A DNA stretch of 64,000 bases from Bacilli bacterium (GCA_045652765.1 JAZOLG010000020.1:69633-133632); one strand, 5' to 3'. Positions 9,627 to 43,197 are shown, counted from the first letter of the stretch. Translations and numbers: made by a program. The notes: generated by a model not told the origin, from the letters alone.

Positions 9627-11974
9627 TGAAAAAAGCAATATTTGCAATACTAATTACTTTAACTTTAGTGTTTACATTAGGTGTTAAAGGTACATCAGCT
9701 GGAGCAACAGAAGATGTAATTATTAATGGTAGTAAAGTATATTATAATTACACAGGCAATACTGTTAAGGTTCCAGTAGAATATGTTGTTGACTCTTCAG
9801 AAATGCGTGGTGCTTGGGTTGCTACTGTTTGGAATAACGACGTTCCAAAACAAAAAGGTACAACTGAAGCTGCAATTGCTGAATATAAAGCATTTTATTT
9901 AGATATATTAGATACTCTAGAAAGTTATAATATGAATACAATTTTCTTCCAAGTTCGTCCAAATAATGATGCATTCTATGAATCAGAATATAACGATTGG
10001 AGTGAATTTTTAGTTGCACGTGGAGTTAATCCTGGTTGGGATCCACTTGAATGGATGATTGAAGTAACTCATGAAAGAGACATGTATTTCCAATGTTGGA
10101 TGAATGCATTCCGTGTTACTGTTGAAGAACAATGCTCTAATGATGCAATTGCTTATTCAGATGATGAATTAATTGCTAAAAAAGCAGCAGCAATTCAAAA
10201 TTTAAGTGCAAAGAATTTCGCAAAACAACACCCTGAATATGTATTAATGGGTGACTATGATTCTAAATTAATTTTAAATCCAGCAGAACTTGCTGTACAT
10301 GATCACTTACTTAATACAATTGGTGAGTTAATCACAAAATATGATGTTGATGGATTCCATTTTGATGATTATTTCTATCTAGATGCAAGATCAGCAGATA
10401 GAATTGATCCACAAACACAAAACCTAGCATTTGCTGGTGGTATTGAATATAAAGAAAAATTAACTGGTGTTAATATTTTAAATGACTTACCAACTTATAA
10501 AGATTATCAAGAAAATCCAAGCAAATATAATTTACCTGAAGGTTTAACTCTTGGTGAATTTAGAAGAAAGAGCCTTAATAATTTAATGGCTAAAATTAGA
10601 GAACTTGTTGATTCAGTAAATGAAGAATATGGAAAAGATGTTGAATTCGGATCTAAACCAGCTGCTGTATGGCAATCAAATTCAGAAAACTGTGCAGACA
10701 GTAGTCAAAAAGGTGCAGTAGGCGGATCTAATACACATTGCGGTGCGTATAGCTCAAACTATGATTTATTTGCTGACACAAAATATTGGGTTGAAGCAGG
10801 ATATGTAGACTGGATTAGTCCACAAGTTTATTACGATTTAGCTAACCGTATTGTACCATATGCTGACATTGTTTCATGGTGGGCTGATGTCGTTGTTAAG
10901 ACTAATGAAAAAAGAGCACAAGAAGGTTTAGAACCTATTAAGATGTATGTTGCACATGGTATTTATAAATATCACGCATCAAGTAGTGAATATAATGATG
11001 TAAATGAAGTAACTTATCAAATGCGATATAACCAACAATTTGATGTAATTAAAGGTTCTGCAATTTATGCATATAGTGATTTATACAAATTCCAAAATGA
11101 CATTCAAAAATTTGGTGTTGGTACGCACTTTAGATCATTATGGGTAACACATCCAGTATTACCACTTCCAAAAGGAGAAGTTGATTTTACAGATTTAATG
11201 ATTGATACATATAATGTCAAAGATACTGCAACTAAAAATAAATTTGATGTAAGTTTCCCTAAAATTGAAAATGCTAGTATGTATGCAATTTATCGTATTA
11301 ACAAGGGTGAAACATTAGATTTAAATGACACTAGAAATCGTATTTTAATTGTAAAAGATTATAAGTTCGATCAAAATATTGAATTTACAGTTTTATGCAA
11401 TGAAAATCAAGAAGTATATGTTCAAGCTGTTTCTGACAACTATATTCCACAATCATCTGCTGTAAAAATCGATTTTGAAAAAGCAAGCATTAACCAAGCT
11501 CCAAATCCGGTTGAGATTGTAATTAACAATGGCGAAGATGTTTTGGACGCAAGTGGCGTTTATACATTTACTTTCCCATACGCATTTGATGTTGATGGAG
11601 ATGAACTTAAATATAGTGTTAAAGTTGGATTTGAAGGTAAAAACGGACCAATTAGAACTCCTGCCAACAGCATTGAATATTTAGATGATAAAATTGTTGT
11701 AACATTTGAAGCATTTGGTATTGAAACTGAAAACTTTGTTGTTCAATTAACAATTGATGATGGAAGAGAACAAACAATTGTTTATAGTAAAGAAGTAAAA
11801 CTTGTCGATGACGGTGGTAAGGATCCAGTTGAACCAGATACTCCAGAACAACCTGAAACTCCGGAAAACCCATCTAAACCAGGTAACTCTGGTGGCGGTT
11901 GTCCAATGGGTGTTATGTATTTAACACCACTTCTTGGAGCTTTCACAATTTTGGTTGTTAAAAGACGTAAATAA
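9626..11974 (+). CDS. Surface-exposed GHL10 (glycosyl hydrolase-like 10, DigH/YngK family) protein with C-terminal Cys-tail
   Basis: Signal peptide MKKAIFAILITLTLVFTLGVKGTSAGA. GHL10 core RGAWVATVWNND...IFFQVRPNNDAFYESEYNDWSEF...NPGWDPLEW...WMNAFRV...DGFHFDDYFY. Beta-sandwich C-terminal domains. Tail GGGCPMGVMYLTPLLGAFTILVVKRRK. TAATG stop/start overlap with the upstream gene. Confidence 0.8.
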   Translation: MKKAIFAILITLTLVFTLGVKGTSAGATEDVIINGSKVYYNYTGNTVKVPVEYVVDSSEMRGAWVATVWNNDVPKQKGTTEAAIAEYKAFYLDILDTLESYNMNTIFFQVRPNNDAFYESEYNDWSEFLVARGVNPGWDPLEWMIEVTHERDMYFQCWMNAFRVTVEEQCSNDAIAYSDDELIAKKAAAIQNLSAKNFAKQHPEYVLMGDYDSKLILNPAELAVHDHLLNTIGELITKYDVDGFHFDDYFYLDARSADRIDPQTQNLAFAGGIEYKEKLTGVNILNDLPTYKDYQENPSKYNLPEGLTLGEFRRKSLNNLMAKIRELVDSVNEEYGKDVEFGSKPAAVWQSNSENCADSSQKGAVGGSNTHCGAYSSNYDLFADTKYWVEAGYVDWISPQVYYDLANRIVPYADIVSWWADVVVKTNEKRAQEGLEPIKMYVAHGIYKYHASSSEYNDVNEVTYQMRYNQQFDVIKGSAIYAYSDLYKFQNDIQKFGVGTHFRSLWVTHPVLPLPKGEVDFTDLMIDTYNVKDTATKNKFDVSFPKIENASMYAIYRINKGETLDLNDTRNRILIVKDYKFDQNIEFTVLCNENQEVYVQAVSDNYIPQSSAVKIDFEKASINQAPNPVEIVINNGEDVLDASGVYTFTFPYAFDVDGDELKYSVKVGFEGKNGPIRTPANSIEYLDDKIVVTFEAFGIETENFVVQLTIDDGREQTIVYSKEVKLVDDGGKDPVEPDTPEQPETPENPSKPGNSGGGCPMGVMYLTPLLGAFTILVVKRRK

Positions 11975-11984
11975 TAATAATATA

Positions 11985-12022
11985 AGCTTTTAAAGAATAA
12001 AATGTCTTTAAAGGCTTTTTTT
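11985..12022 (+). terminator. Rho-independent terminator ending operon A
   Basis: AGCTTTTAAAGA / TCTTTAAAGGCT stem (one G-U pair) followed by T7. Confidence 0.75.
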
Positions 12023-12038
12023 ATTTTGTATTTTATTC

Positions 12039-12067
12039 TTGAAAAAAACCTAAACTTATGCTATACT
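12039..12067 (+). promoter_or_regulatory. Promoter of operon B (dipeptidase-GHL10-GHL10)
   Basis: TTGAAA (12039-12044), 17-bp spacer, TGcTATACT (12059-12067). Confidence 0.55.
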
Positions 12068-12089
12068 AATATGAAGAAAGGAAGATAAT

Positions 12090-12959
12090 ATGCCTATATA
12101 CGATACACATAGTGATATATTTTACAATTTAGCATTTAAAAATGTAGAAGACCCATTTAAACAATACCATTTAGATGACTTGACTAAAGGAAATGTCAAA
12201 GGTGGAATATGGGTAGTTTATTCTGATGAAGATTTTGATGTTGTCAAAGCTTATGAAATTGCCATTGATAAATTTAAAAACTACGAAAAAGATTTTGATG
12301 TTATCAAAGGATTAGAAGGTCTAAGAAATGTACCTGATTTAAAAACATTAGAACTTTTATATCAAATGGGAATTCGTCATGCTAGTTTAACATGGAACGA
12401 AGAAAATCATCTTGCAACTGGTGTCAGAGGAAATCCTGAAAGAGGACTAACTGAACTTGGAAAAGAATTTATCAAATACATGAATGAACATGATATGATT
12501 GTTGACGTTTCACATTTAAATGAAAAAAGTTTTTATGACGTTTTAAAAGAACAACCAAAGATCCTAATTGCGTCTCATTCCAATGCTTATGCATTATCTG
12601 ATCATATACGTAATTTAAAAGATGAACAACTAGTTGCTCTTCGTGAAGCTGGTGGAATGGTTGGCTGTGTTGCAGCAAGAAATTTTGTTTCTAAAAAGAA
12701 AGAAGATCAAAATATAAATGGTTTAGTAAAACAAATTAAATATTTAGTAGAAATTATGGGAATTGATAAAGTAATGTTAGGATTAGATATGATGAACTAT
12801 TTATCGGATTTTCCAAATTCGAACTTAGATGATTTACAAACACATGCTGATTGTTCAAAGTTAGAAGAGGCTTTACTAAAAAATGGTTTTAACAAAGAAG
12901 ATGTTGAAAAAATAACTTACAAAAATTATGAAAATTTAAAAAGAAAGGTAAAAATGTAA
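12090..12959 (+). CDS. Peptidase M19 family dipeptidase, cytoplasmic
   Basis: M19 signature pieces: IYDTHSDI, HASLTWNEENHLATG, VDVSHLNEKSF, ASHSNAYALSDHIRNLKDEQL. No signal peptide. Confidence 0.75.
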   Translation: MPIYDTHSDIFYNLAFKNVEDPFKQYHLDDLTKGNVKGGIWVVYSDEDFDVVKAYEIAIDKFKNYEKDFDVIKGLEGLRNVPDLKTLELLYQMGIRHASLTWNEENHLATGVRGNPERGLTELGKEFIKYMNEHDMIVDVSHLNEKSFYDVLKEQPKILIASHSNAYALSDHIRNLKDEQLVALREAGGMVGCVAARNFVSKKKEDQNINGLVKQIKYLVEIMGIDKVMLGLDMMNYLSDFPNSNLDDLQTHADCSKLEEALLKNGFNKEDVEKITYKNYENLKRKVKM

Positions 12960-12960
12960 A

Positions 12961-15114
12961 ATGAAAAGAATAGTAACTGTATTGTTATTAGTTTTTACGA
13001 TTATGTTTTTCGTAAAAAAACCAAGTGTCAATGCTTTAGTAATTAATGATAGCTTGGAAGAATTAAGGGGAGTATGGGTATCTACTGTATCTAACATTGA
13101 TATTAGTAGACAAAATGGTGTTACAGAAAAAGCAATTAATGATTATAAAAATCAATTATTAGATATATTAAGTAAGGCAGAACATTATGGAATTAATGCA
13201 ATCTTTTTCCAAGTTCGTCCTTCAAATGATGCATTCTATGAATCAGAATATAATCCATGGAGTCAATATTTTTTCCAACATGGTGTGAATCCGGGATGGG
13301 ATATGCTTTCATGGTTAGCTGATGAATGCCATTCGAGAGGTATTGAACTACACGCTTGGTTAAACCCATATCGTGTAACTGCATCTCGTGTTGCAAGTTT
13401 TAGTGATGGCGAAGAAAAAATTAATCAAATTAAATTTAGTTTAAGAGCTCAAGCTCAAAGCTTATACCCAAATATTAATAATCCATTAAATATTCAAGAT
13501 GATGAAGAGTTTTTATCAACTGTTGTTTTAGGTGCTGAAGGACAAATGGTATTAAATCCTGCAAAGCAAGCAACAATTGATCATGTAACAAATACTATTG
13601 TTGAATTAATTGAAAATTATAATATTGATGGTGTTCACTTTGATGACTATTTCTATCCATCAGGTGGTATTGAATCAAAATACGATTCAGCTGACTATCA
13701 AGCGTATAAACAAAATGGTGGTAACTTAGGCGTTGAAGATTGGCGTCGTAATAATGTTGATAGAATGGTAAAAGCGGTAAGTGATGCAGTTCAAGCTTAC
13801 AACCAAAAGAATCCAGATCAATATACTGCATTTGGTATTTCTCCGGCTCCTGTTTGGGCGCCATCTGCAGAAAGATGTCCAGATGGTCGTGGTCAAGAAG
13901 GCGGTATGGATGTAATTTGTGGAAGTTATAGTACATATAATACTTTATATGCCGATACAAAGAAATGGGTTGAAGAAGAATGGTTAGATTATATTCTTCC
14001 TCAATCATATTCATCACTTGCTGAAAACTACAAAGAAATTGTTAGATGGTGGTCAAAAATTTGTGCACCAACTAAAGTAAAATTATATATTGGAACAGGT
14101 TATTACAAATTAGCTGAATCAAATGCTGATACATTTGGTAGTGCTTACGAAGTTGATAATCAATTTAAATATGTTAAAGATAACAATTATACAGAAGTTG
14201 ATGGATTTGTATTATTCTCTTATAAGAATTTAGAAACATCAACTGGAAATTTAGGATCTGCTAATGTACTTTTAAAGAAAGCATGGAATAGTGGAGCATT
14301 ACTTCCATCATATGAAGAAGTAAAACCAATTACAGAACTTCCAACTGTTGAATTAATTAAACTTGGAAACAAATATTATATGAGTTTTAATGAAGTTGAA
14401 AATGCTAACGGATATGCATTATATGCTGTTCCAAAAGGACAAGATGCCAACTTTAAAGCAGAAGGCGTTGTTGTACAAAAAATCTTTAATAAACTAGGAA
14501 CTGGCGCTAAACAACAATATAATGCATTAACTGATTATAGTATTAGTAACTATGATTTCTATATCAGAATTTTTGATAATTCAAATAAACCTATTGAACA
14601 AAGTGTTAAAATTGATTTTAACACTGCAATAGTTAACGAAGGCGCACAAATTGAAATCTTAGATTTTGTTGAAAAAGATTATAAAGTTGGCGAAACTATT
14701 AAAGTTCGTGCTCAAATTACATCTGATTTAGATTTACCATTAACTGTTACTATTAAAGTTCGTTATAATGGTGCTAAATATTCTACAACATTTAATATGA
14801 CTGAGGTTGAAGATGGCATTTATGAATATGAATTCCAAACTTTGATCGAAGCAACAACTCAATTAAAAATTGTTGTAAACGACACTGATACTGAAAAAGA
14901 ATTAGAACTTCCTGCCGTTGAAGTTTTAGAAAAAGTAGTAGAACACGTTCATGAATTTATTGATGGTGTGTGTGATTGTGGTGAAAAAGATCCAAATAGA
15001 GAACCGGAAGATAAACCATCAAATGGTGGTGGATCAAATTGTCCAATGGGATTTGTTTCTGTTTTACCATTAATGGCTGCGGCTACATTATTATTAATAA
15101 GAAAGAAAAGATAG
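12961..15114 (+). CDS. Surface-exposed GHL10 family protein (paralog 2) with HxHEF..CxCGE module and C-terminal Cys-tail
   Basis: Signal peptide. Core RGVWVSTVSNID...IFFQVRPSNDAFYESEYNPWSQY...NPGWDMLSW...WLNPYRV...DGVHFDDYFYP. Ends EHVHEFIDGVCDCGEKDPN...GGGSNCPMGFVSVLPLMAAATLLLIRKKR. Confidence 0.8.
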   Translation: MKRIVTVLLLVFTIMFFVKKPSVNALVINDSLEELRGVWVSTVSNIDISRQNGVTEKAINDYKNQLLDILSKAEHYGINAIFFQVRPSNDAFYESEYNPWSQYFFQHGVNPGWDMLSWLADECHSRGIELHAWLNPYRVTASRVASFSDGEEKINQIKFSLRAQAQSLYPNINNPLNIQDDEEFLSTVVLGAEGQMVLNPAKQATIDHVTNTIVELIENYNIDGVHFDDYFYPSGGIESKYDSADYQAYKQNGGNLGVEDWRRNNVDRMVKAVSDAVQAYNQKNPDQYTAFGISPAPVWAPSAERCPDGRGQEGGMDVICGSYSTYNTLYADTKKWVEEEWLDYILPQSYSSLAENYKEIVRWWSKICAPTKVKLYIGTGYYKLAESNADTFGSAYEVDNQFKYVKDNNYTEVDGFVLFSYKNLETSTGNLGSANVLLKKAWNSGALLPSYEEVKPITELPTVELIKLGNKYYMSFNEVENANGYALYAVPKGQDANFKAEGVVVQKIFNKLGTGAKQQYNALTDYSISNYDFYIRIFDNSNKPIEQSVKIDFNTAIVNEGAQIEILDFVEKDYKVGETIKVRAQITSDLDLPLTVTIKVRYNGAKYSTTFNMTEVEDGIYEYEFQTLIEATTQLKIVVNDTDTEKELELPAVEVLEKVVEHVHEFIDGVCDCGEKDPNREPEDKPSNGGGSNCPMGFVSVLPLMAAATLLLIRKKR

Positions 15115-15117
15115 GAT

Positions 15118-16389
15118 ATGAAATTAAATAAATTTAATAGTGAAGAATTAGTTTGTTATTATAAATCTACTAAGCCTGTAGATTTACCGAATTATGAGTA
15201 TAATGAAAAATACGTTCGTGGTATTTGGGTTTCAAATGTTGTTAACATTGATACACCAATTATGAAAGATGTTGATAGTTATAAAGAATACTTAGTAAAA
15301 ATGATTGAAAACATTGCGTCATATAATATCAATTTAATGATCTTTCAAGTAAGACCAACAAGTGATGCATATTATGAATCTAAATTAAATCCATGGTCTA
15401 GATTTATTACTGGAACTGAAGGCAAAAATCCTGGATTTGACGTATTAAAATTTGTTATTGAAGAAGCTAAAAAACACAATATTGAAGTTCATGCATGGAT
15501 GAATCCATATCGTGTCTCAATGAAATCTGTTACTGATGGAACTATTACAAAAGAAGAATATCTTAATAATTTAGATGATTTAAACTTTGCGAAACGTTAT
15601 CCTGAAGATACAATTTTAGATGGAAATGGAAAGATAATTTTAAAACCTTCATCTGAAAGAGTTGTTAAATTTGTGACTGATACTATTATGGAAGTTATCG
15701 AAAATTATGATGTTACAGGTGTTCATATTGATGACTATTTCTATCCATATGCTAAAGTTCCAGAATCAGAAGAACTAGCTGATTATGAAGCAAGTGGGAA
15801 AGAAAAATCATTTGATGATTGGCGTAGAGAAAATGTTGATAAATTAATTGAAAGTGTTCACCATGCTATGAAAAAATCGCTTAGCAAAGAAAACCGCACA
15901 GTTCACTTTGGAATTAGTCCGTTTGCAATTTACAGAACAAATTCAAGCATTAAAGAAGGCGGATGGGAAAAAGGTTCATATCATTCAGCTGGTGTTACAG
16001 AATGCTATACTGACCTATACTCAGACATTTACAAATGGATGAAAGAAGGATGGATCGATTATGTTGTTCCTCAAATTTATTGGCCATTTGAAAGAAAAGA
16101 TGTTAACTACCATGACTTAACAAAATGGTGGAGTGAAATAGCACAAGAAACAAATACTATTCTTTACATTGGACATGGCCTATATCAAATGGGTGTAAAT
16201 GAAGTATGGGCAAATCCTTTAGAAATTGATAATCAATTAAGATTTAATCAACAATATCCTAAAGTAGCTGGTTCAATTTTCTTTACATACAAAGATTTAG
16301 TTCCTGGCCAAAATGCTACTAAAGATGCGGCGATTGCTCTTATGAAATGCCGTTTTAATCAAGAAAAAATCTTAAAATTTGAAAAATAA
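15118..16389 (+). CDS. Cytoplasmic GHL10 family protein (paralog 3)
   Basis: Same core (RGIWVSNVVNID, MIFQVRPTSDAYYESKLNPWSRF, NPGFDVLKF, WMNPYRV, TGVHIDDYFYPY). No signal peptide, no accessory domains, no tail. Confidence 0.8.
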   Translation: MKLNKFNSEELVCYYKSTKPVDLPNYEYNEKYVRGIWVSNVVNIDTPIMKDVDSYKEYLVKMIENIASYNINLMIFQVRPTSDAYYESKLNPWSRFITGTEGKNPGFDVLKFVIEEAKKHNIEVHAWMNPYRVSMKSVTDGTITKEEYLNNLDDLNFAKRYPEDTILDGNGKIILKPSSERVVKFVTDTIMEVIENYDVTGVHIDDYFYPYAKVPESEELADYEASGKEKSFDDWRRENVDKLIESVHHAMKKSLSKENRTVHFGISPFAIYRTNSSIKEGGWEKGSYHSAGVTECYTDLYSDIYKWMKEGWIDYVVPQIYWPFERKDVNYHDLTKWWSEIAQETNTILYIGHGLYQMGVNEVWANPLEIDNQLRFNQQYPKVAGSIFFTYKDLVPGQNATKDAAIALMKCRFNQEKILKFEK

Positions 16390-24228: not shown

Positions 24229-26112
24229 ATGAAAAAGAAAATATTATTTTTAACAATTTTATTAACATTCTTACTTGTACCAACATTCGTAATTGGTGCA
24301 TACTCTTACAACTATGATTTCTTTAAAAATCCAATTTATTCAAGTGAAGGTTTAACTTTCAAAGATGCAATTGACTTTAATGAAATCTTTAAAAATGGTG
24401 ATTCATTTACAGATTCTGAAAACTTTATCGGTGGTACAGTAATTGATCACTTCATTGATTTATCTGACTTAGCTGTTTACGAAGATGAAATATATGTACT
24501 TGATGGTGCATCTACAGCATCTAAAAAAGATGTAATTGAGTTTACAGTTAATGCAAGAAAACAAGAAGATGTAGATAAAAATCCTGAAGCTTCTGCAAGT
24601 GAACAAAAAGTTCAAGTTTACAAAAATAGTGGAATCTATTTATTAAATCCAGATTACACAATTAAAGACAGAATGAACGTATTTGAAATTACAGATGAAG
24701 CTGCAAAAGCATTAGCAGAATCTTATTACTATGAACTAAAAGATGGTAAGAGAGAATACTTATTTGATTCAGAACATCCTGAAAAGGTTACAATTGAACA
24801 AATTCAAGCAGCTACAATTTTAATTGACAAAAACAATAAAGTTATTCGTGCTCCATTCTTTGCATATGATATTAATCCTAGTGAAGACGGATACGAAACA
24901 TGTGTAATGTTAAACTCTGCAAATGGTTTATACGTTACAAAAGATTATATTTATGTAGCAGATTCTGGTAATGCAAGAATTCTTGGTATTCGTAAGTCTG
25001 ACTACGTTGTAGATAAAGTGTACACTACACCTAATGATGAAGGTACATTCTACATGTTCGATTATGCTGATGAAGCAACAACAAAAATTTTATATCAACC
25101 TTCAAAAATTGTTGTAGACGATTCTGGTCGTTTATATACAATCGCAACTAATACATACCAAGGTATTATTGAATACAATCAAGATTCTGAATTCAATCGT
25201 TTCTTAGGTAAAAACTTAGTTACAAAACGTTCTTGGTGGTCATTCTTATTAAGTGAAGAACAATATGCTAAACTATCACTTAACTTACCATCAGAATTTA
25301 CAAATTTAACACTTGACGATCGTCAATTAATTTATGCTACTGCTCAACCAGACCCATCTGCAACAACAGCAGCAGAAATGATTAAACTTATTAATACATC
25401 TGGTAAAGACGTATTAAAACGTAATGGATATGTTACACCTGATGGTGATATTAAATATGCATCATACGTTAAACCAGCCGTTGAAGGATCTTCTAAGTTT
25501 ACAGCAATCGATGTAAATAAAGACCGTATCTATTCAGTAGCTGATAGAACAAGAGGTCGTATTTTCACATATGATGAAGAAGGTAACTTACTTTATGTAT
25601 CTGGTGAAAAAGGTGATCTAGAAAGTAATATTAAAAATCCAGTAGCTTTAAGATATTTCAATGTATCTGATTCAACTGGTGAAAACACTTTAGAATATGT
25701 ATTGTTACTTGACCAAGGCGCAGGTACAGTTATGGTTTACGAAACTACTCAGTTTGGTAAATTAGTAAATGAAGCTACAAGCTTATATTTAAGAAATGAT
25801 ATTCATGGTGCCAAAGCTAAGTGGGAAGAAGTTTCTAAGATGAATAGTAACTATGAACTTGCTTATGTTGGTATCGGTAAGAGCTTATTAAGAAATGGCG
25901 ATTACAAAGAAGCTATGGTAAACTTTGAATTAGGTCACAATGCTGAATATTATTCAGACGCATTCAAACTTTATCGTAATGATTTAATTAAAGAACACTT
26001 TGGAATTCTTATGACAGGAATTGTTATTATTTGTGTAGCAGGTGTTGCATTAACAGTTTCTAAAAAGATTTACAAAAGAAATCTAGAAAGATCACAAAGG
26101 GAGGAAGCGTAA
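24229..26112 (+). CDS. Exported NHL-like beta-propeller / TPR protein with C-terminal TM anchor
   Basis: Signal/anchor at the N-terminus. Repeats of NHL type (YIYVADSGNARILGI, VVDDSGRLYTIA, IYSVADRTRGRIFTYDEEGNLLYVSG). TPR-like helices follow, then TM GILMTGIVIICVAGVALTV and a charged tail. Confidence 0.5.
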   Translation: MKKKILFLTILLTFLLVPTFVIGAYSYNYDFFKNPIYSSEGLTFKDAIDFNEIFKNGDSFTDSENFIGGTVIDHFIDLSDLAVYEDEIYVLDGASTASKKDVIEFTVNARKQEDVDKNPEASASEQKVQVYKNSGIYLLNPDYTIKDRMNVFEITDEAAKALAESYYYELKDGKREYLFDSEHPEKVTIEQIQAATILIDKNNKVIRAPFFAYDINPSEDGYETCVMLNSANGLYVTKDYIYVADSGNARILGIRKSDYVVDKVYTTPNDEGTFYMFDYADEATTKILYQPSKIVVDDSGRLYTIATNTYQGIIEYNQDSEFNRFLGKNLVTKRSWWSFLLSEEQYAKLSLNLPSEFTNLTLDDRQLIYATAQPDPSATTAAEMIKLINTSGKDVLKRNGYVTPDGDIKYASYVKPAVEGSSKFTAIDVNKDRIYSVADRTRGRIFTYDEEGNLLYVSGEKGDLESNIKNPVALRYFNVSDSTGENTLEYVLLLDQGAGTVMVYETTQFGKLVNEATSLYLRNDIHGAKAKWEEVSKMNSNYELAYVGIGKSLLRNGDYKEAMVNFELGHNAEYYSDAFKLYRNDLIKEHFGILMTGIVIICVAGVALTVSKKIYKRNLERSQREEA

Positions 26113-32557: not shown

Positions 32558-33247
32558 ATGAAAAGCAAAATATTGAATAGTAAAGCATATCAAGTATTTG
32601 ATTACATATGTCGTTTAGTTATTCTGAATTTATTGCTGGTCATAATATCATTCTCGATTTTTCTTATTATGATCAACATATTTCCGAATATGAAAAATAT
32701 TTATCGAATACTTTGTTTAATACCAACAGCACTAAATTTCTTGCCATGTGTTGTGGCTATTGCTGATGTTATTAAAGGATATGAAATAGAAAAAAATACA
32801 GGTATTTTTAAAGAATTTTTTACAGGTTTTAAAAAATATTTTTCTAAAGCATCATTACTAAGTGTGCTTTTAATTGGATGTATATTATTGATTACAAATA
32901 GTGTAACTTTCTTTAGTACAATGCAATCAACAGGTGTTATATACACGATTGGCTTTGGACTATCATTATCATTAATTGTTGTTTTGATAATAGGATTTAT
33001 TCATCTACCACTAGTAATGATTTATTTCGATGATTTGAAGTTGGTTCATTATATTAAACTAAGTTTAATATTCGGATTTAAAGATCTTGGATTAACTTTA
33101 TTATTAACATTATTTGTTATTGGGACTATTGTCCTTTGTTACTTAATGAGTTTTTATTTAGTAGTTTTAGCATTTAGCTTAGCAATATATTTAATAATTA
33201 AATTAACAAAAAATAAATATTTTAAAATTTCTGAAAGGAATAAATAA
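32558..33247 (+). CDS. YesL/DUF624 family membrane protein
   Basis: 229 aa. N-terminus YQVFDYICRLVILNLLLVIISFSIF and six TMs are typical of DUF624 proteins found beside sugar ABC systems. Confidence 0.65.
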   Translation: MKSKILNSKAYQVFDYICRLVILNLLLVIISFSIFLIMINIFPNMKNIYRILCLIPTALNFLPCVVAIADVIKGYEIEKNTGIFKEFFTGFKKYFSKASLLSVLLIGCILLITNSVTFFSTMQSTGVIYTIGFGLSLSLIVVLIIGFIHLPLVMIYFDDLKLVHYIKLSLIFGFKDLGLTLLLTLFVIGTIVLCYLMSFYLVVLAFSLAIYLIIKLTKNKYFKISERNK

Positions 33248-33248: not shown

Positions 33249-35261
33249 ATGAAAAAGAGTTTATTATGTAAAAGACTAGTTGCGGTTATTATCGGACTAT
33301 TTCTAGTATGTACTCTAACTTTTAAAATTAACTCTGCAAATGTAACTGATAGTGTTGCACTTGTTGGCGATATTAAAACTGAAAGATTATGGGACGGCAT
33401 TGATATGGAAAGAATGCACGTTCAATCAAAACTTCATGGTGTTCCAACAAATGGTAATAGTTATGATTGGGATGCAGTAGCAATTTCTGCTGAAAACAAT
33501 CCAGCTATTAGAATTGTTACTTGGGGTTTAACTGCTGCTGATGGTGTTGGCTATAAAGCCGGAACAACTATGGATATCGCAAAAAATTATGAAAAAGAAA
33601 ATCCTGGATATACTGTTATTGCAGCTATCAACGGAGATTTCTTTGCTAACGCTCCATTTACTACTTCTGCAGGTGTTAGCAATAGTAAAGGAACTTTTGA
33701 ACCAATTAATACATGGGTTGCAGACGGTGGTAAAGTATATAAACCAGTTACAATTGCGCACCCTCATCATAACGTTATTGGTTTATTTGAAGACAGATCA
33801 TATCTATATCACTTAGGTACTTGGTATGATCAATTAGGAAATGTAAGTTTTGCAGATGGTGCATATGCTGGAACATCTGCTCAATATGGACAAAATTTAC
33901 CAACATTTACTGAACAAGCAGTTTTCTCAGTAGGAGATTATCAAACTACTGCATGGTCATATAAACAAAAAGCTTCTCTAAATGAAGAAGCGGTTAATAT
34001 TTTCTGGGAAGGTCAATACCTTAATATTGATGTTACAGGATATACAGTATGGAAAGCAAAAACTGACCGTTTAAGTATTCCAACAGATGGATTCCAAACA
34101 AAATATTTTGTTGAACAATCATTAGCTGGATGGCAATATAATTTAGAATATACTAAATATTATATGGAAGGTCGTTTTACTGAAGTTCAAAACTTAACAT
34201 CTATTAGTGAAGTTGAAGATGGTTGGTGTTATATTGTAACAAAAGATCAAGAAGTAATTAGCAGATTAGGTCGTGCTGTTGAATTTACAGCTCAATATGA
34301 AATGACAGGCGTTTGGGAAAATGTTAATTCAGCAATCGGTACAGTTTTACCTATTATTATTCAAGGTAAGAGAACTGCGTATGTTGGTGTTAACGAACAT
34401 TATTTAAATACTTTCAAACCTAAAACAGTTTTAGCATTTAAAGAAGACGGAACATGTTTATTCTTCTTTATGGGTCCTGGACCACTTGGTGGTTCTAGTG
34501 AAGGTGGACCTTCATCAATTGAACTTGCTGAATTATTAGAAAGACTAGGCGTAGTTGATGCCTTCTGTTTAGATGGCGGCGGATCTTCATCAATTATTTG
34601 TAGAAGAGGTGATGACTTCGTTGAATTAAATACTCCTACAGATGGTCAAACAAGATCTATTGGTAATGCCGTATTAATGGTTGTAGAAAACAGCAATCTT
34701 GAAGTATTAGAAGCACATGCTACAAAAGCTACATTTGGTCAATCAAAACCAATGGTAGAAAGTGAATTAAAAGAAGCTGTTCTTCACTTTAATGGTAAAG
34801 ATTATGTATATAATGGCGAAGAAATTTTAATTGAAGGGTTAAAACCTAATACAACTTATGAATATTATTTTGATTATTCATTTGAAAGAGATGGAAAATT
34901 ATTACATTCAAAAACAAATATTCAAACATTCACAACTGGAAACGATGATCCTATACATGTTCATGAATTTGTAGATGGTGTTTGTGAATGTGGAGAAAAA
35001 GATCCAAACTGGAAAGAACCAGTTCATGAACATGAATTTGTAGATGGTGTTTGCGAATGCGGAGAAAAAGATCCAAACTGGAAAGAACCAGTTCATGAAC
35101 ACGTATTTGTAGATGGCGTTTGTGAATGTGGAGAAAAAGAACAAAATGAAGATGAAAAACCATCAAATGGTGGTGGAGGAATGAACTGTGCTATGGGATT
35201 TGTTTCAGTTCTACCTTTAATTGGTGCAGGAGCCTTATTAATAATTAAAAAACGCAAATAA
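33249..35261 (+). CDS. Surface-exposed phosphodiester glycosidase (NAGPA/DUF2233) family protein with 3 HxHEF..CxCGE repeats and Cys-tail
   Basis: Signal peptide. VIAAINGDFFAN and AFCLDGGGSSSII...TRSIGNAVLMV match the NAGPA-domain hallmarks as I recall them. Tail GGGGMNCAMGFVSVLPLIGAGALLIIKKRK. Confidence 0.7.
   Translation: MKKSLLCKRLVAVIIGLFLVCTLTFKINSANVTDSVALVGDIKTERLWDGIDMERMHVQSKLHGVPTNGNSYDWDAVAISAENNPAIRIVTWGLTAADGVGYKAGTTMDIAKNYEKENPGYTVIAAINGDFFANAPFTTSAGVSNSKGTFEPINTWVADGGKVYKPVTIAHPHHNVIGLFEDRSYLYHLGTWYDQLGNVSFADGAYAGTSAQYGQNLPTFTEQAVFSVGDYQTTAWSYKQKASLNEEAVNIFWEGQYLNIDVTGYTVWKAKTDRLSIPTDGFQTKYFVEQSLAGWQYNLEYTKYYMEGRFTEVQNLTSISEVEDGWCYIVTKDQEVISRLGRAVEFTAQYEMTGVWENVNSAIGTVLPIIIQGKRTAYVGVNEHYLNTFKPKTVLAFKEDGTCLFFFMGPGPLGGSSEGGPSSIELAELLERLGVVDAFCLDGGGSSSIICRRGDDFVELNTPTDGQTRSIGNAVLMVVENSNLEVLEAHATKATFGQSKPMVESELKEAVLHFNGKDYVYNGEEILIEGLKPNTTYEYYFDYSFERDGKLLHSKTNIQTFTTGNDDPIHVHEFVDGVCECGEKDPNWKEPVHEHEFVDGVCECGEKDPNWKEPVHEHVFVDGVCECGEKEQNEDEKPSNGGGGMNCAMGFVSVLPLIGAGALLIIKKRK
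34956..35150 (+). repeat. In-frame tandem repeat, 3 x 69 bp (23 aa, H-x-H-E/V-F-V-D-G-V-C-E-C-G-E-K)
   Basis: Units start at 34956, 35025 and 35094. The first two are nearly identical at the nucleotide level and the third diverges after GEKE. Confidence 0.9.
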
Positions 35262-35276: not shown

Positions 35277-37256
35277 ATGAAAATAAAAGTTTTTAAAAAT
35301 TTGTTGATGCTTATTGTAAGCGTGAGCTTAGTTACTGTTTTATCAATAAACGTTAATGCTGCAAAACTAACTGAAAATGTAGAACTTGTTGGCGATATAC
35401 ATTCTCAACAAATATGGGATGGTGTAATGCTTGAGCGTATGCATATTAAAGCAAAAAGAGTTGGATCAACTAGTGCAGATCCAAGTATTTATGACTGGGA
35501 TACAGTAGCAATTAGTGCTGAGAATAATCCTGCTATTCGTATTGTAACTTGGGGTATGGATACCCAATTAAATGGTAAAGATTACAAAGCTGGTACAACT
35601 TTACAAATTGCACAAAACTATGAAGCAACTCATCCAGGATATACAGTTATTGCTGGAGTAAATGGAGACTTTTTTGCCAATCGTGGTTTTACAACGAGCG
35701 GAGGTAAGGTTTATTCATCGGCTACAAATGAACCTCTTAATACATGGATTGCTGATGGAGATGCGTTTAAATCTGTAGTAATGGCTAATCCTGACCATGT
35801 GGTTCTAGGCTTTAGTGAAGACCGTAGTTATCAATATCACATCGGTACAATCTATGGTAAAAATTATGAAATTATCTATAATGATAATATATATGATGGA
35901 ACTGGCGCAGTTAGAGGTGAAAATGTTCCAACATTTACAGATACACCAATTTTTAATATAAATGATACAAAAAAAGAAGCTAACGTTTATTTTCAAACGA
36001 AAGAAGTAAAAGACGATGCAGTTAATATCTTCTGGGAAGGTAACTATGATAATATAGATGTATCTGGTTATACTGTTTGGAAAGGTTATGTTGATAGATT
36101 TAGCATTCCACAAGATGGATTTAATAAAACATTTATTGGTAGACATCCAAGTGATTCTAGTCAACATGCAATGACTTATGGATATGATTATACGCATTAT
36201 TATTTGCGTGGTCGACTATTAGAAGAAGTTGAAATAGATACTATTTCAACTGTGGATGAAAACTATTTTTATGTTGTAACTAAGGATGATGCAGTAACTA
36301 GCCAATTTGTTAAAGCTGCAACAATTAAAGTACAATATGAATTAACAGGTAATTGGGCCGGTGTAACATCTACAATGGGCGTATTATTTCCATTCTTAAT
36401 TAATGGTAAGAGAACAGCTTATGTTTCAGTTAAAGGCGATCAACATAATAATAATTATTTAAATGACAATAAACCTAAACCTGCAATTGGATTCAAAGCA
36501 GATGGTACTTGTGTGTTCTTCTTTATGGGACCAGGACCACTTAGCAAATCTAGTCAAGGTGGACCTTCTTCAATTGAAATGGTTGAAGTAATGGAAAAAA
36601 TGGGAATTGTTGATGCATTCTGCTTAGATGGCGGCGGATCGGCTTCAATTGTTTATCGTAACGATAAAGGGAAACTTGAAGAATTAAATTCACCGACTGA
36701 TGGGCAAACAAGAAGTGTTGCAAATGCAATATTAATGGTAGTTGAAGATAGTAATTTAGAAATGATTGAAACTTTATCAACAAGTGCAACATTTGGACAA
36801 ACAAAACCTATGGTTGATAGTGAATTATTATCTGCTACTTTACATATTGATGGCAAAACATATGAATTAAAGAATGAAAATATAACTGTAACAGGACTAA
36901 AACCTAATACTGAATATGAATACTATTTTGAATATACTTATAAAGATAATCTTCTTGAAAGAACAACAAAAACTAATTTGATGAAGTTTGTAACAAGTTC
37001 CTTAGATGAGCATGAACATGAATTTATTGATGGAAAATGTGAATGTGGAGAACTTGATCCAAATTATGAACCTCCACTTGATGAACACGAACATGAATTT
37101 ATAAATGGTGAATGTTCATGCGGTGAAAAAGAATCTACTACTAATGAACCTGATAAAAACAATAATGGTACATCAGGATGTAATATCGGCAGTTTGGCAA
37201 CTATTCTGCCTATGATTGCAGCATTTAGTTTGATACTAATAAGAAAAAGAAAATAA
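35277..37256 (+). CDS. Surface-exposed phosphodiester glycosidase (NAGPA/DUF2233) family protein, paralog 2, with 2 repeats and Cys-tail
   Basis: Collinear with the upstream paralog (VIAGVNGDFFAN, AFCLDGGGSASIV, TRSVANAILMV). Signal peptide. Tail GTSGCNIGSLATILPMIAAFSLILIRKRK. Confidence 0.7.
   Translation: MKIKVFKNLLMLIVSVSLVTVLSINVNAAKLTENVELVGDIHSQQIWDGVMLERMHIKAKRVGSTSADPSIYDWDTVAISAENNPAIRIVTWGMDTQLNGKDYKAGTTLQIAQNYEATHPGYTVIAGVNGDFFANRGFTTSGGKVYSSATNEPLNTWIADGDAFKSVVMANPDHVVLGFSEDRSYQYHIGTIYGKNYEIIYNDNIYDGTGAVRGENVPTFTDTPIFNINDTKKEANVYFQTKEVKDDAVNIFWEGNYDNIDVSGYTVWKGYVDRFSIPQDGFNKTFIGRHPSDSSQHAMTYGYDYTHYYLRGRLLEEVEIDTISTVDENYFYVVTKDDAVTSQFVKAATIKVQYELTGNWAGVTSTMGVLFPFLINGKRTAYVSVKGDQHNNNYLNDNKPKPAIGFKADGTCVFFFMGPGPLSKSSQGGPSSIEMVEVMEKMGIVDAFCLDGGGSASIVYRNDKGKLEELNSPTDGQTRSVANAILMVVEDSNLEMIETLSTSATFGQTKPMVDSELLSATLHIDGKTYELKNENITVTGLKPNTEYEYYFEYTYKDNLLERTTKTNLMKFVTSSLDEHEHEFIDGKCECGELDPNYEPPLDEHEHEFINGECSCGEKESTTNEPDKNNNGTSGCNIGSLATILPMIAAFSLILIRKRK
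37005..37131 (+). repeat. In-frame tandem repeat, 2 x 75 bp (DEHEHEFIxGxCxCGE)
   Basis: Units start at 37005 and 37080 (DEHEHEFIDGKCECGELDPNYEPPL / DEHEHEFINGECSCGEKE). Confidence 0.85.
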
Positions 37257-39698: not shown

Positions 39699-39722
39699 AA
39701 AAAAAGAGTACAATGTTATAAT
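39694..39722 (+). promoter_or_regulatory. Near-consensus promoter of operon D
   Basis: TTGCAA (39694-39699), 17-bp spacer, TGtTATAAT (39714-39722). AGGAGG RBS lies before the ATG at 39769. Confidence 0.7.
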
Positions 39723-39726
39723 ATAA

Positions 39727-39741
39727 TCGCAAACGCTTTCA
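39727..39741 (+). promoter_or_regulatory. cre-like box just downstream of the -10 of operon D
   Basis: TCGCAAACGCTTTCA fits WTGNAANCGNWNNCW with one mismatch. The position suggests an operator or roadblock. Confidence 0.5.
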
Positions 39742-39768
39742 AAAATAATATATAGGAGGAAAAAATAT

Positions 39769-42700
39769 ATGAAAAAAGTTTTTGCTTGCTTAAGTGCTTT
39801 AACACTTATGTTAGTAGCGTTTGGTGTTGCAATGAAACCTGCTACTGTTTCAGCTGCTGGTGTTGCTGATGGTAAATTCATTGTTGACCCAACTCTTGAA
39901 GAGGGAGATATCCCAATGTATATAATGAATAGTATTTATACTACATTCCCTACTCTTTATGATAATGATGCTCAAGCTGACCCAGATCATTCAACTGGTC
40001 GTTTGTTCTACTGGAATGAAGTTAAATTAATTATTCCTCAATTTAGTGCTGAAGGTCCTACTGGACAAAGATATACTGTATACTCACAAGGTGCTTATGA
40101 TGAAACATTAGAATCTGCTGCAGGTACTAAAATTTATCTTTGGACATTAGATGAAAACGGTAACCCTGTTACTTCTACAAAAACTCGTAGTGGAAACCCT
40201 GACTACACAAGTTTATATGGTCCACAATTTGGTGACGTATCACTTTCTGGTATCCGTTACAATGTAACTGGTCAAGAAGTAATTATCAACGACCTTCATA
40301 ATGAAAAAGGTATTACTAATGGTGACGGTGGTACTGACCCATTCTTCATTATTTTCAATGGTGAAGGTAAAGCTGTTCGTGGTCATAACCATGGTAACTA
40401 TGTTGATGCTGCAAATATTGAAGCTTATGGATACACTCCATTATTAGGTTATAAAGATGGTCAAATCGTTGTAATCGAAGACGTAGCTGGTGCTGCTGAT
40501 GTTAATGGTAACTCTGCTGCTGAAGCTGATTTAGACGTTAAGAAAGTTACAGTTGATGATTTAGACAATCCATTATTAGACCCTGTTACTGGTGAACAAT
40601 TAACAGACGATGAAGGAAATCCTCTTTACAATCAAAAAGAAGAAGATGATCCAACTGGTGCTAAACAAATTTTAACTGGTAAACGTTATATTTGGCAATG
40701 GTATTCTGAAGAAGAATTTGCTAACGTTAAAGTTAACACTGTTCCTTACATGGCTGAAGGTTGGTTAGCTGATCGTTGGGATTATGCATACCCAGATCAA
40801 AATGGTGGTTATGTATGTATCGCTATTACTTCATCTTTAGGTAACAATGCTAAAATCTCTGCTGAAGAATCAGCAATCCACAATGCATCTGTAGACGCAT
40901 TAGTAGCTGCTGGTGAAGAAGCTCCTGCTAAGATTGAAGAAACTGAAACTCCAAATGAAGATGGTACTGTAACAGTTACTTATGCTGCTTACCGTCGTCC
41001 TATCGTTATCAGTGTTGTAATCCCTGTTGATGGTATTATGTATCGTTTCGGTTACTTAGATTACACTGGTAAACCAGCTGTTCCTCTATACATGGAAAAA
41101 TTCAACCCATTATGGGAACAAGCTATGTTATATGGTCGTAACCCTGAATATCAAGCTTACGCTCGTACATATAACTTCTCTGGTCAAGGTTTAGTTGAAA
41201 CTAATGCTGTTGTTAATGGTGAATCATTTATCGTTAGAAACGAAAATGGTAAATTAGTTGTTGAAGTTAAAGCTGGTGCTACTATCGATGTATCTGAATT
41301 AATCGAAATTTCTGGTATGTTAGGTGGTTACGCAACTGCTGGTAAACCTGCTAAAGAAGCTGGTTCTAACGTTGCTGCTGTTTTAACTTATAAAAATGCT
41401 GACGTTTCTGAATTAAGTTACGTTTTAGACATTGATGGACAACACATCATGTGGGCTGAAAAGTTCAAATATGAAAGTGCTGCTCAAGCTGCTGCTGAAT
41501 TCAAAGTTGCTATGGAAGCTGCATTCGGTGGTGCATTCTCTAACTGGTCTGGTAATGCTAACATCTTCAAACTATTCACAGAATCTGATGAATGGGATTG
41601 GGTATTAGATTATTGGACAGCTGTAAATGCTAATGAATATGAAGGCAAGAAAAATGCTGATATGTTCCAAGCATTAAAGAATGGCGATACATCTATCGAT
41701 CCATACTTTATCGCTGTTGAAGCTAACTCATTTGCTAAATTAACTGAATCTTCAGTTTATGCAAGTTCATTAAAATCTGCTAACTATGGTAACGCTGATG
41801 TTCAAGAAGCTATCTGGGACTTCATGCCTGCACCAGATCCATACAAATTTGAATCATTCGATTTATTCGTTGAAGAATTTATTAAAGATTATGGAACATG
41901 GGCTGCTGAATTCTGTGCTGCTAATGGTAAAACATTCGTTACATTAGTTGACGGTGTTCCTACATTCTCTGGTGATGGTAAACCTATCAACAAAACTACA
42001 TGGTCAGGTGCTATGGAAAACGTTGTAGGTAATGCTAACTGGAAATACACTACATTCTTCGAAGATGAAAGATTCGCTGAAAAATGGGGTTGGTTCATTG
42101 ATTTCTTCAATGAACAAATCACTTCTACTCCAAAAGCTGACGGTACTGCATATGCTTACACAATCGATAATAAATATGCATGGCGTCAAGCTTTACAAGC
42201 TTACTTCACAGCTGAATATTGGGGTTCATGGCCATATTCTCCAGACTTCTCTGGTAGATCAGAAACTCCTTACTGGGTTGGTATTAATGAAGTATGTCCA
42301 ACTTGGGCTGAAGCTCAATTCGTTTTAGGTGAAGCTTACGATGTTCATGACAGAATTCCTCTAGCTCTTGAAGTTACTAACAAAGCTACTGGATTTGTTG
42401 ATACATTAGCTATGGAATTTGTAATCGTTGAAGATTACACTCCATTATTAAAAGTTGACACTGCTGCTTTAGAAGCAATGCAAAGTGAAATCTATGGTGG
42501 TGCTACATCAATCGATTTATCAAAAGCTCTTCTTGCTTATGATGGATACTATGATGCAAGATTAGATAACGTTTATGGTCATAACATTTCTAGACACATT
42601 GAATGGGATTTACCAGAAGGATTTGATCCTGCTCAATTAACAGCTGGTCAATGGGTTATCAAAGCTCGTATCGAATCTCAAGTAAATGGTGCTAACAAAT

Positions 42701-43197
42701 CTGCTGAAGCTCAATTCACAGTTTATGTACCAGATAATACAGCTCCTGTATTTAAAACTTTAAATAACGGTGTTATTTATGTACCTGTTGGTACTCCTAT
42801 CACAGCTGAAATGGTATTACAATTTGCTTATGACAACGTTGATGGTGATTACTTAAATAACTGTCAAGTATACCATAACTGGTTCTCAGTTAAAACTGAT
42901 TATGATCCATTAATGGCTGCTGTATATGATGAATATGACGCTGAAATTACTGTTGCTGACTCTAACGGTATGAAATCAACTGAAAAAGTTACAATTATCG
43001 TAACTGGTACTTATGTTGATTTAGAAGGTATTGAATTCCCTGAATTCCCTACTCCAGAACAACCTGGTCAAAATAATGGAACTGATGGTGGTGAAAACAA
43101 CGGTGGTGAACAAGCTGGTTGTGTAAGCTTTGCTTATGTTTCAAGCTTCATTGCTGCTGCTGGTTTAGCATTATTAGTTTTCAAAAAAAGACACTAA
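39769..43197 (+). CDS. 1142-aa surface protein of unknown function with Ig-like C-terminal domains and Cys-tail
   Basis: Signal peptide (cleavage near VSAAG). No catalytic motif recognised. The C-terminal region has DUF5011/Ig-like pattern (VPDNTAPVF...DNVDGDY...ITVADSNGMKSTEKVTIIV). Tail GGEQAGCVSFAYVSSFIAAAGLALLVFKKRH. Strong bias to GCT/GGT/GTT/ACT codons. Confidence 0.6.
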   Translation: MKKVFACLSALTLMLVAFGVAMKPATVSAAGVADGKFIVDPTLEEGDIPMYIMNSIYTTFPTLYDNDAQADPDHSTGRLFYWNEVKLIIPQFSAEGPTGQRYTVYSQGAYDETLESAAGTKIYLWTLDENGNPVTSTKTRSGNPDYTSLYGPQFGDVSLSGIRYNVTGQEVIINDLHNEKGITNGDGGTDPFFIIFNGEGKAVRGHNHGNYVDAANIEAYGYTPLLGYKDGQIVVIEDVAGAADVNGNSAAEADLDVKKVTVDDLDNPLLDPVTGEQLTDDEGNPLYNQKEEDDPTGAKQILTGKRYIWQWYSEEEFANVKVNTVPYMAEGWLADRWDYAYPDQNGGYVCIAITSSLGNNAKISAEESAIHNASVDALVAAGEEAPAKIEETETPNEDGTVTVTYAAYRRPIVISVVIPVDGIMYRFGYLDYTGKPAVPLYMEKFNPLWEQAMLYGRNPEYQAYARTYNFSGQGLVETNAVVNGESFIVRNENGKLVVEVKAGATIDVSELIEISGMLGGYATAGKPAKEAGSNVAAVLTYKNADVSELSYVLDIDGQHIMWAEKFKYESAAQAAAEFKVAMEAAFGGAFSNWSGNANIFKLFTESDEWDWVLDYWTAVNANEYEGKKNADMFQALKNGDTSIDPYFIAVEANSFAKLTESSVYASSLKSANYGNADVQEAIWDFMPAPDPYKFESFDLFVEEFIKDYGTWAAEFCAANGKTFVTLVDGVPTFSGDGKPINKTTWSGAMENVVGNANWKYTTFFEDERFAEKWGWFIDFFNEQITSTPKADGTAYAYTIDNKYAWRQALQAYFTAEYWGSWPYSPDFSGRSETPYWVGINEVCPTWAEAQFVLGEAYDVHDRIPLALEVTNKATGFVDTLAMEFVIVEDYTPLLKVDTAALEAMQSEIYGGATSIDLSKALLAYDGYYDARLDNVYGHNISRHIEWDLPEGFDPAQLTAGQWVIKARIESQVNGANKSAEAQFTVYVPDNTAPVFKTLNNGVIYVPVGTPITAEMVLQFAYDNVDGDYLNNCQVYHNWFSVKTDYDPLMAAVYDEYDAEITVADSNGMKSTEKVTIIVTGTYVDLEGIEFPEFPTPEQPGQNNGTDGGENNGGEQAGCVSFAYVSSFIAAAGLALLVFKKRH

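Follow-up and report, generated by a model that had tools for sequence, protein, structure and literature searches.

A cysteine-containing C-terminal tail on exported proteins of uncultured Bacilli: a candidate sorting or anchoring signal

Five exported proteins encoded on a 64,000-nucleotide stretch of DNA from a Bacilli bacterium (GCA_045652765.1, JAZOLG010000020.1:69633-133632; G+C content 30%), hereafter called the window, end in tails of one design. In this design, a residue of the set [GSKN] precedes a cysteine, which is followed by about 20 hydrophobic residues and then by 3-4 lysine or arginine residues. The tail is a conserved module with an invariant cysteine, restricted to the C-terminus and carried by unrelated exported proteins. 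A preliminary description of the window had proposed that it is an undescribed, lineage-specific sorting signal, an interpretation that is partly supported by the analysis presented here. In our judgement, the chances that the tail is a previously unmodelled Cys-type tripartite C-terminal sorting or anchoring signal of low-GC, Mollicutes-like Bacilli are about even.

Carriers and their tails

All five carriers are encoded on the plus strand. The scores given below for their tails are those of a profile hidden Markov model (HMM) trained on homologue tails only, with the window's own five tails excluded. The first two carriers are exported hydrolases of the GHL10 family. Carrier 1, a glycan hydrolase, is an open reading frame (ORF) of 782 amino acids at 9626..11974 (PF02638, E=1.7e-38), with a signal peptide at about 9626-9706 and the tail GGGCPMGVMYLTPLLGAFTILVVKRRK at 11891..11971 (Cys codon 11900-11902; 25.8 bits). 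Carrier 2, an ORF of 717 amino acids at 12961..15114 (PF02638, E=9.7e-56), has its signal peptide at about 12961-13035 and ends in GGGSNCPMGFVSVLPLMAAATLLLIRKKR at 15025..15111 (Cys codon 15040-15042; 54.5 bits). Carriers 3 and 4 are exported paralogues of the NAGPA phosphodiester-glycosidase family: the former, with 670 amino acids at 33249..35261 (PF09992, E=3.7e-17), combines a signal peptide at about 33249-33338 with the tail GGGGMNCAMGFVSVLPLIGAGALLIIKKRK at 35169..35258 (Cys codon 35187-35189; 45.4 bits), and the latter, with 659 amino acids at 35277..37256 (PF09992, E=4.1e-19), a signal peptide at about 35277-35360 with GTSGCNIGSLATILPMIAAFSLILIRKRK at 37167..37253 (Cys codon 37179-37181; 45.8 bits). 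Carrier 5, an exported surface protein of unknown function, is an ORF of 1142 amino acids at 39769..43197, with a signal peptide at about 39769-39855 and the tail GGEQAGCVSFAYVSSFIAAAGLALLVFKKRH at 43102..43194 (Cys codon 43120-43122; 22.7 bits).

Translation of the five tail ranges reproduces exactly the peptides that had been quoted, each followed by a stop codon, which the end coordinates of the preliminary description had included. Its statement that every carrier has an N-terminal signal peptide also stands, each protein showing a signal-peptide-like segment and an AXA-type site, judged by eye. This segment and the C-terminal helix are the only two hydrophobic segments in each of the five. 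The cysteine said to be invariant is indeed found in every tail (CPMG, CPMG, CAMG, CNIG, and CVSF in tails 1 to 5), always 3-4 residues upstream of the hydrophobic window, and the final residues are KRRK, RKKR, KKRK, RKRK, and KKRH, respectively.

The designation of the carriers as five Sec-exported enzymes holds for four of them, the two GHL10 and the two NAGPA hydrolases, as judged from Pfam, whereas the fifth is not demonstrably an enzyme. Carrier 5 has no sequence match in Pfam, NCBIfam, or PDB, and Foldseek searches with its AlphaFold2 model (pLDDT 81.7) return only Ig/cadherin-like repeats, located in the C-terminal third. The model suggests a beta-rich N-terminal part followed by stalk-type C-terminal domains of the Ig/cadherin-like kind. 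In the family of this protein (ORF 39769-43197; homologues P0183-P0235), referred to below as the P5 family, the signal peptide MKKVFACLSxxxLMLVAFG is unusually conserved, with a mean column identity of 0.655, against 0.39 for the whole protein, and can still be made out in homologues that are no more than 26-30% identical.

Specificity of the tail

The observation of five related tails is real and statistically secure. When the HMM was run on 370 stop-to-stop ORFs of at least 40 amino acids from the six frames of the window, the five tails scored 22.7-54.5 bits, with every match at the extreme C-terminus, and the next best ORF reached 7.0 bits. The top score among 15,771 control ORFs, taken from 1.48 Mb in 80 loci of other lineages, was 9.0 bits. 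A filter for a C-terminal helix plus basic tip, applied mechanically to the window ORFs, retained the five carriers and a single polytopic ABC permease that has no Cys. Filter and HMM together single out only the five carriers, in line with the earlier remark that no cytoplasmic protein of the window bears the tail. Two further remarks proved correct: the propeller (NHL-repeat) protein at 24229-26112 has a different C-terminus, which is also longer, and there is no LPXTG signal, as no LPXTG-like motif was found in the last 50 residues of any window ORF of at least 100 amino acids.

Twenty matches at E<=0.001 were obtained when 1.84 billion representative proteins were searched with a tail profile. 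They end at the C-terminus or 1-2 residues from it, the exception being one 60-amino-acid fragment; the confinement to extreme C-termini that had been put forward as a check on the signal is thus true of all but one fragment among the 20. A scan of metagenomes with a tightened tail alignment yielded 7 loci, all on JAEIGA01 contigs, and a word-indexed search with the tail alignment yielded 2 fragments, short queries sharing few 5-mers.

Distribution, invariant cysteine, and subtypes

The motif extends beyond the paralogue pairs of the window, to many lineages of metagenome-assembled genomes (MAGs), to several subtypes, and to additional carriers. For GHL10, the counts rest on the best 120 homologues of the window protein, 111 of which have a helix plus basic tip at the C-terminus. 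A juxtamembrane Cys, counted when it lies within -10 to +3 of the helix start, is present in 101 of these 111 C-terminally anchored proteins and in 54/54 tailed homologues of the P5 family; in protein bodies, the frequency of Cys is 0.9%. The tail Cys sits 23-33 residues from the C-terminus and is preceded by G (51%), S (21%), K (14%), or N (9%), which together account for 95% of tails. Its invariance was further checked in two alignments of 40 sequences each. The Cys of tail 2 (C694) forms an invariant column of the GHL10 alignment (A3), in which mean column identity is 32%, and so does the Cys of tail 5 (C1118) in the P5-family alignment (A5), at a mean of 37%. No Cys substitution was seen in the closest 30 GHL10 homologues or in the 54 P5 homologues.

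The tails of the window belong to a subtype that can be written G-G-x-x-C-x-[MF]-G-x4-L-P-[LMI]...R-K-[KR]-[RE]. Further subtypes include Lys-rich forms (KGCKK, KKCGKK), a form with two Cys (GC-x-x-C-x-K), and TGCG[FW]FN in Izemoplasmatales. The Gly-rich spacer attributed to the signal is therefore a property of the window subtype only and does not hold for the others. As for the carriers, unrelated families share the tail: GHL10, NAGPA, the P5 family, a metallophosphoesterase resembling purple acid phosphatases, and an Ig-like surface protein. A tail of the window type occurs on the metallophosphoesterase, in a contig region that also has amidase, ribosomal-protein, and IF-3 genes, and on another NAGPA protein adjoining DNA polymerase III and tgt, and the Ig-like surface protein of an Izemoplasmatales MAG ends in a Cys tail.

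The MAGs that supply the best 120 GHL10 homologues are all labelled Bacilli, Mollicutes, Tenericutes, or Izemoplasmatales. When the GHL10 alignment was compared with genome contigs, only distant homologues (<=38% identity), from many phyla, were found among the matches listed. The supposed lineage specificity can be kept insofar as the tail is limited to uncultured Mollicutes-like Bacilli lineages, but these do not amount to one narrow lineage. The orders RFN20, RF39, and ML615J-28 are genome-reduced and partly peptidoglycan-deficient members of the Bacilli (Field et al.), and the labels of the carrier MAGs point to lineages like these. Individual clusters of carrier proteins at 90% identity hold 270-990 member sequences. 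Homologues from Acholeplasma MAGs, Haploplasma axanthum, and Haloplasma contractile end in a helix plus basic tip that is Cys-less.

The word 'undescribed' proved apt, both for curated models and for the searchable literature. Fifteen tails (5 from the window and 10 of other subtypes) were compared with NCBIfam release 20 (June 2026), and none of the 15 reached the cutoff of any of its models; Pfam assigned no domain to the tail. Matches below cutoff to TIGR04564, TIGR01167, NF033507, and NF033846 show that this NCBIfam release does hold sorting-domain models. Searches of the literature turned up no account of a tail of this kind in Bacillota or Mycoplasmatota, and the terms Firmicutes, Bacilli, Mollicutes, Tenericutes, and Erysipelotrich- are absent from the main text of the Haft survey of such signals (10.1101/2023.06.07.544157).

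Conservation and exchange of the tail

The tail is an island of conservation behind a hypervariable linker. Mean column identity in the P5 family is 0.52 over the last 25 residues, 0.13 in the linker, and 0.39 over the whole protein; the corresponding values for GHL10 are 0.42, 0.22, and 0.51. Tails 2 and 3 are found on unrelated enzymes (GHL10-b and NAGPA-a) and are nevertheless identical at 63% of amino acids, 70% of nucleotides, and 57% of third codon positions. Conversely, the NAGPA paralogues (carriers 3 and 4) are 52% identical overall, and their tails only 33%. These identities indicate that tails have moved between genes, but not recently, and recent gene conversion as the source of their likeness is ruled out by a third-position identity of only 57%.

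The signature around the Cys also varies in concert within genomes. Between two old GHL10 paralogues, its identity is 0.44 within a genome versus 0.29 between genomes, and 17/720 permutations reach the observed value. Such co-variation would be expected if one genome-encoded partner reads the motif, the sample being small.

Search for a processing enzyme

The search for an enzyme consisted of Pfam scans of the window's membrane proteins, of the Pfam lists of neighbours in six related contigs, and of a screen for CPBP and rhomboid proteins based on regular expressions and counts of transmembrane (TM) segments. The scans and the motif screen agree with the preliminary description that the window encodes no cognate processing enzyme. 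No CPBP-like motifs were seen in ORFs with several TM segments, and PF02517 appears next to tail genes in no neighbour list of the related contigs. In the MYXO and Synerg systems, too, the genes for the housekeeping sortases lie away from those of their targets (10.1101/2023.06.07.544157), so the lack of a local enzyme weighs little either way.

In three contigs, the gene just before a tail-bearing NAGPA gene encodes a protein with six TM segments (window 32558-33247, L086 4553-5257, and L089 23-712). The window copies at 32558-33247 and 45982-46659 match DUF624 (YesL-like), and the L086 copy has no Pfam match. DUF624 was rejected as a partner of the tails: the family has no known protease function, and its second copy precedes the NamZ gene, whose product has no hydrophobic segment, so that the link to the tails is probably incidental. 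Yip1/DUF1189, members of which are encoded close to some carriers and which is likewise a family with no known protease function, was rejected as well, since it follows, or may be fused to, the NHL protein, which is Cys-less.

Proposed mechanism and alternative explanations

The architecture of the carriers suggests a course of events in which the N-terminal signal peptide would drive Sec export, and the helix with its cytoplasmic RKKR tip would stop transfer, leaving the Cys at the outer face of the membrane. The thiol of this Cys would then be lipid-modified, and a polytopic intramembrane protease would remove the helix and basic tip to leave a C-terminally lipid-anchored protein. A CPBP/Rce1-like enzyme, of the kind linked to MYXO-, Synerg-, JDVT-, and CGP-CTERM, would be the most plausible protease, with its gene in another part of the genome. 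The outcome would be that Sec-exported enzymes and surface proteins are held on the outer face of the cytoplasmic membrane. An intramembrane protease would be well suited to the window subtype, given its C-x-[MF]-G motif and the Gly and Pro in the outer half of its helix. A bolder proposal is that gut Bacilli possess a 'C-terminal lipoprotein' pathway mirroring Lgt/Lsp, in which the tail Cys is lipidated and a dedicated intramembrane protease cuts off the helix. Monoderm or wall-less bacteria would thereby gain their first Cys-type CTERM system, and these Bacilli the main display route for their scavenging enzymes. We put this proposal forward tentatively, as somewhat less than an even prospect.

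Several points weigh against a processed sorting signal. Cleavage at the Cys, its lipidation or thioether formation, and the dedicated enzyme are all steps that we infer. Neither the window nor about 300 kb of tail-positive loci yielded genes for CPBP, rhomboid, sortase, or exosortase proteins. Many subtypes have Lys-Lys right after the Cys, for which there is no obvious role if the chain is cut directly after that residue. Conservation of the GHL10 tail (0.42) falls short of the protein average (0.51), and the co-variation test covers six genomes only, which are partly related. Finally, the Cys-less TM tails that related lineages have on homologous enzymes indicate that the helix alone can anchor.

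This last point also speaks for the main rival, a retained anchor with an acylated or disulfide-bonded Cys. In this explanation, the helix would be a permanent, uncleaved stop-transfer anchor, with the Cys S-acylated as a second tether or engaged in an intermolecular disulfide that pairs surface enzymes, and no sorting protease would exist. The Acholeplasma, Haploplasma, and Haloplasma homologues, which keep the TM segment and basic tail without the Cys, show the helix to be sufficient; no protease candidate lies nearby in the window or the related loci; and the fact that every exported window protein is membrane-tethered would fit a wall-poor cell that has to anchor its proteins in general. 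The Lys residues found on both sides of the Cys in many subtypes would also retain a use at the membrane surface in an uncleaved protein. A plain anchor, however, does not account for the conservation of helix-destabilising Gly and Pro in the outer half of the helix of the window subtype (C-x-[MF]-G-x4-L-P), nor for a TM sequence that hardly varies within the P5 family; these two features suggest that the tail is read by a protein and not merely embedded in lipid. The same architecture characterises signals that are cleaved in every case examined by experiment, such as MYXO-CTERM (PMC11980579), and the co-variation of the motif within genomes hints at a shared recognition partner. A retained anchor is, on this evidence, rather unlikely.

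The two other explanations have far less in their favour. One would make the tail an ordinary C-terminal anchor whose Cys has no special function, and would ascribe the likeness of the tails to common descent, or to exon-like shuffling or gene conversion of 3' ends in a compact locus. Most carriers are indeed located in one syntenic super-locus, and the 70% nucleotide identity of tails 2 and 3 fits an exchange of modules. It is nonetheless a very improbable explanation, given that the Cys is kept in 155/165 tails of families that have diverged to 26-35% identity and whose linker and Cys-neighbouring residues vary freely, that extracytoplasmic Cys is otherwise rare (0.9% of protein bodies), that carriers also occur outside the locus beside housekeeping genes, and that the third-position identity of tails 2 and 3 (57%) excludes a recent exchange. 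According to the other, the tail would be a divergent member of a catalogued family (Synerg-, MYXO-, or Loki-CTERM) that current HMMs miss. A weak, partial match of one subtype to Synerg-CTERM (12.7 bits) speaks for it. All 15 of the 15 tails are below every cutoff, the MYXO-, CGP-, and JDVT-CTERM models give no match at E<=10, the hosts are Bacilli instead of Synergistales, Myxococcota, or Thermococcales, and a step involving a type II secretion system (T2SS) and an outer membrane cannot apply in monoderm or wall-reduced cells; we therefore consider membership of a catalogued family very improbable.

Genomic context

Most of the window, from about 1800 to 52600, is one conserved super-locus for scavenging N-acetylmuramic acid (MurNAc) and peptidoglycan, which is partly syntenic in the related contigs L081-L088. 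It comprises a truncated MurC-like ligase, LacI, a PBP4B-like protein, PIG-L, three GHL10 proteins, an M19 dipeptidase, and GH20; a 1140-amino-acid anchored solute-binding protein, two pairs of ABC permeases, the NHL protein, Yip1, and DUF5696; and the two NAGPA proteins, GH3, NagB, NamZ, a kinase, AnmK, and MurQ. The Mur-ligase gene (1827-3029) is short (400 amino acids), scores 244 bits against a MurC equivalog cutoff of 335 bits, and heads the locus in related contigs too; its role may lie in recycling, in which case it would not indicate full peptidoglycan synthesis. The third GHL10 paralogue (15118-16389; 423 amino acids), found at the same position in related contigs, has neither signal peptide nor tail and is therefore presumably cytoplasmic.

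Apart from the five Cys tails, the window encodes proteins tethered through a lipobox (44248, 52607, and 58967), proteins with an N-terminal signal anchor (18407, 26788, and 53712), and one with another kind of C-terminal helix (24229-26112). It thus appears that no exported protein of the window is freely secreted and that all are tethered.

Just upstream of three of the tails, the regular expression H-x-H-x-F-[IV]-[DN]-G-x-C-x-C identifies a mini-motif in the plus-strand translation. There is one copy before tail 2 (14944..14979), three tandem copies of 23 amino acids before tail 3 (34956..35129), and two copies before tail 4 (37011..37121). The consensus of the 23-residue repeat is H-[EV]-H-[EV]-F-[IV]-[DN]-G-x-C-x-C-G-E-x-[DE]-P, with two His and two Cys in each copy. 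Tails 1 and 5 lack these His2/Cys2 mini-repeats, and up to 4 copies are present in the homologue P0174. They are covered by no Pfam model and may be an accessory linker module, extracellular and resembling a zinc knuckle. A metagenomic ORF of 86 amino acids, P0167, has nothing besides a lipoprotein signal peptide with an LVGC lipobox, a single mini-motif, and a Cys tail of the window type; it could encode a micro-protein anchored at both ends or be what a deletion has left behind.

Significance

The carrier lineages are uncultured, yet their sequences are abundant in public metagenome assemblies, including those of animal and human samples. If the tail is a processed sorting signal, the class formed by MYXO-, Synerg-, CGP-, and JDVT-CTERM would be extended to Bacillota and Mycoplasmatota and to single-membrane bacteria, and the system would be the first of the Cys-type CTERM kind in monoderm or wall-less bacteria, with neither T2SS nor outer membrane. 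It would be the main display route for glycan- and peptidoglycan-scavenging enzymes in genome-reduced gut Bacilli and would show which enzymes of the MurNAc/peptidoglycan-scavenging locus act outside the cell. An annotation model of the tail would flag surface proteins in thousands of MAGs, and the search for a new sorting protease and a lipid transferase could start from the carriers as a defined set of targets. We know of no lipid transferase identified as yet for MYXO-CTERM either.

Comparison with known sorting signals

Three of the features by which the Haft survey defines tripartite signals are found here: the tail occupies the extreme C-terminus of proteins with signal peptides, it has the layout of Cys, helix, and basic residues, and it occurs on several non-homologous carriers. 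The signals of LPXTG/sortase cell-wall anchoring in Gram-positive bacteria likewise combine a C-terminal TM helix with a basic tip and keep signal-peptide proteins at the surface. In the present tail, a Cys takes the place of the sortase motif and abuts the helix without a spacer. The best score with the LPXTG model (TIGR01167) is 14.6 bits against a cutoff of 15.9, for a match over profile positions 10-32 of 34; alignments to this model span its later positions only (9/10-34 of 34), which we read as the helix and basic part. Similarly, Loki-CTERM (NF033507) gives 13.6-16.9 bits against a cutoff of 19.9, over positions 5/6-26 of 27 only, and Rumino_NPXTG (NF033846) 13.7 bits against 23.5, over positions 11-30 of 30 only.

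The N-terminal lipoprotein signal (lipobox; Lgt, Lsp) is a mirror image of the tail: in both, a basic end lies in the cytoplasm, and a hydrophobic span and small residues separate it from a Cys at the outer face. In 72% of tails, G or S occupies position -1. The window also encodes lipoproteins of the classical kind, whose lipoboxes read LVGC, LIAC, and LIGC. The tail, by contrast, sits at the other terminus, with the chain running in reverse, and a cut of the Lsp type, N-terminal to the Cys, cannot release it.

Four tripartite signals of the Cys type, MYXO-, JDVT-, Synerg-, and CGP-CTERM, are listed in the Haft survey, each of them linked to an intramembrane protease of the CPBP/Rce1-like kind (10.1101/2023.06.07.544157). 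CGP-CTERM (MrtA, Thermococcales) and JDVT-CTERM (MrtJ) share with the present tail a Cys motif that abuts the helix, and CGP-CTERM is, moreover, found in single-membrane cells, as are the carriers studied here. CGP-CTERM is nevertheless archaeal, and its Cys is followed by Gly-Pro instead of the P/A/N-M/I/F-G, K-K, or similar residues seen here. JDVT-CTERM is a dedicated system whose one target adjoins its protease, whereas no protease is encoded next to the targets here. None of the 15 tails matched either of them (TIGR04288 for CGP-CTERM), or MYXO-CTERM (TIGR03901), at E<=10.

Synerg-CTERM, whose predicted protease is MrtS, occurs in Synergistales. It is a Ser/Gly-rich cluster that ends in an invariant Cys abutting the TM helix, with a basic tip, and it occurs on several secreted proteins per genome, as does the tail described here. 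By inspection, the window subtype has the same Ser/Gly-rich cluster ending in a single Cys next to the helix. The window tails do not match the Synerg-CTERM model (TIGR04564), however, and the best of the 10 tails of other subtypes reaches 12.7 bits against a cutoff of 22.5. The tails of the window subtype share a conserved C-x-[MF]-G...L-P core, and other subtypes have KGCKK or two Cys; no MrtS-like enzyme was identified in the window or the related loci; and Synerg-CTERM belongs to Synergistales that combine MrtS with a divergent T2SS, whereas the present carriers are from MAGs of Bacilli, Mollicutes, or Izemoplasmatales.

MYXO-CTERM (MrtX, Myxococcota) also consists of an invariant Cys motif, a TM helix, and a basic cluster, and some of the subtypes described here carry two Cys (GC-x-x-C), again like MYXO-CTERM. 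It has been shown by experiment that MrtX cleaves MYXO-CTERM in a Cys-dependent manner, and lipidation of the signal is predicted (PMC11980579). The T2SS then carries MYXO-CTERM proteins to the surface of the outer membrane, a step with no counterpart in a monoderm cell; because the carrier hosts are monoderm or wall-reduced, the T2SS and outer-membrane step of these systems cannot apply to them. By analogy, MYXO-CTERM provides the best mechanistic model for the tail.

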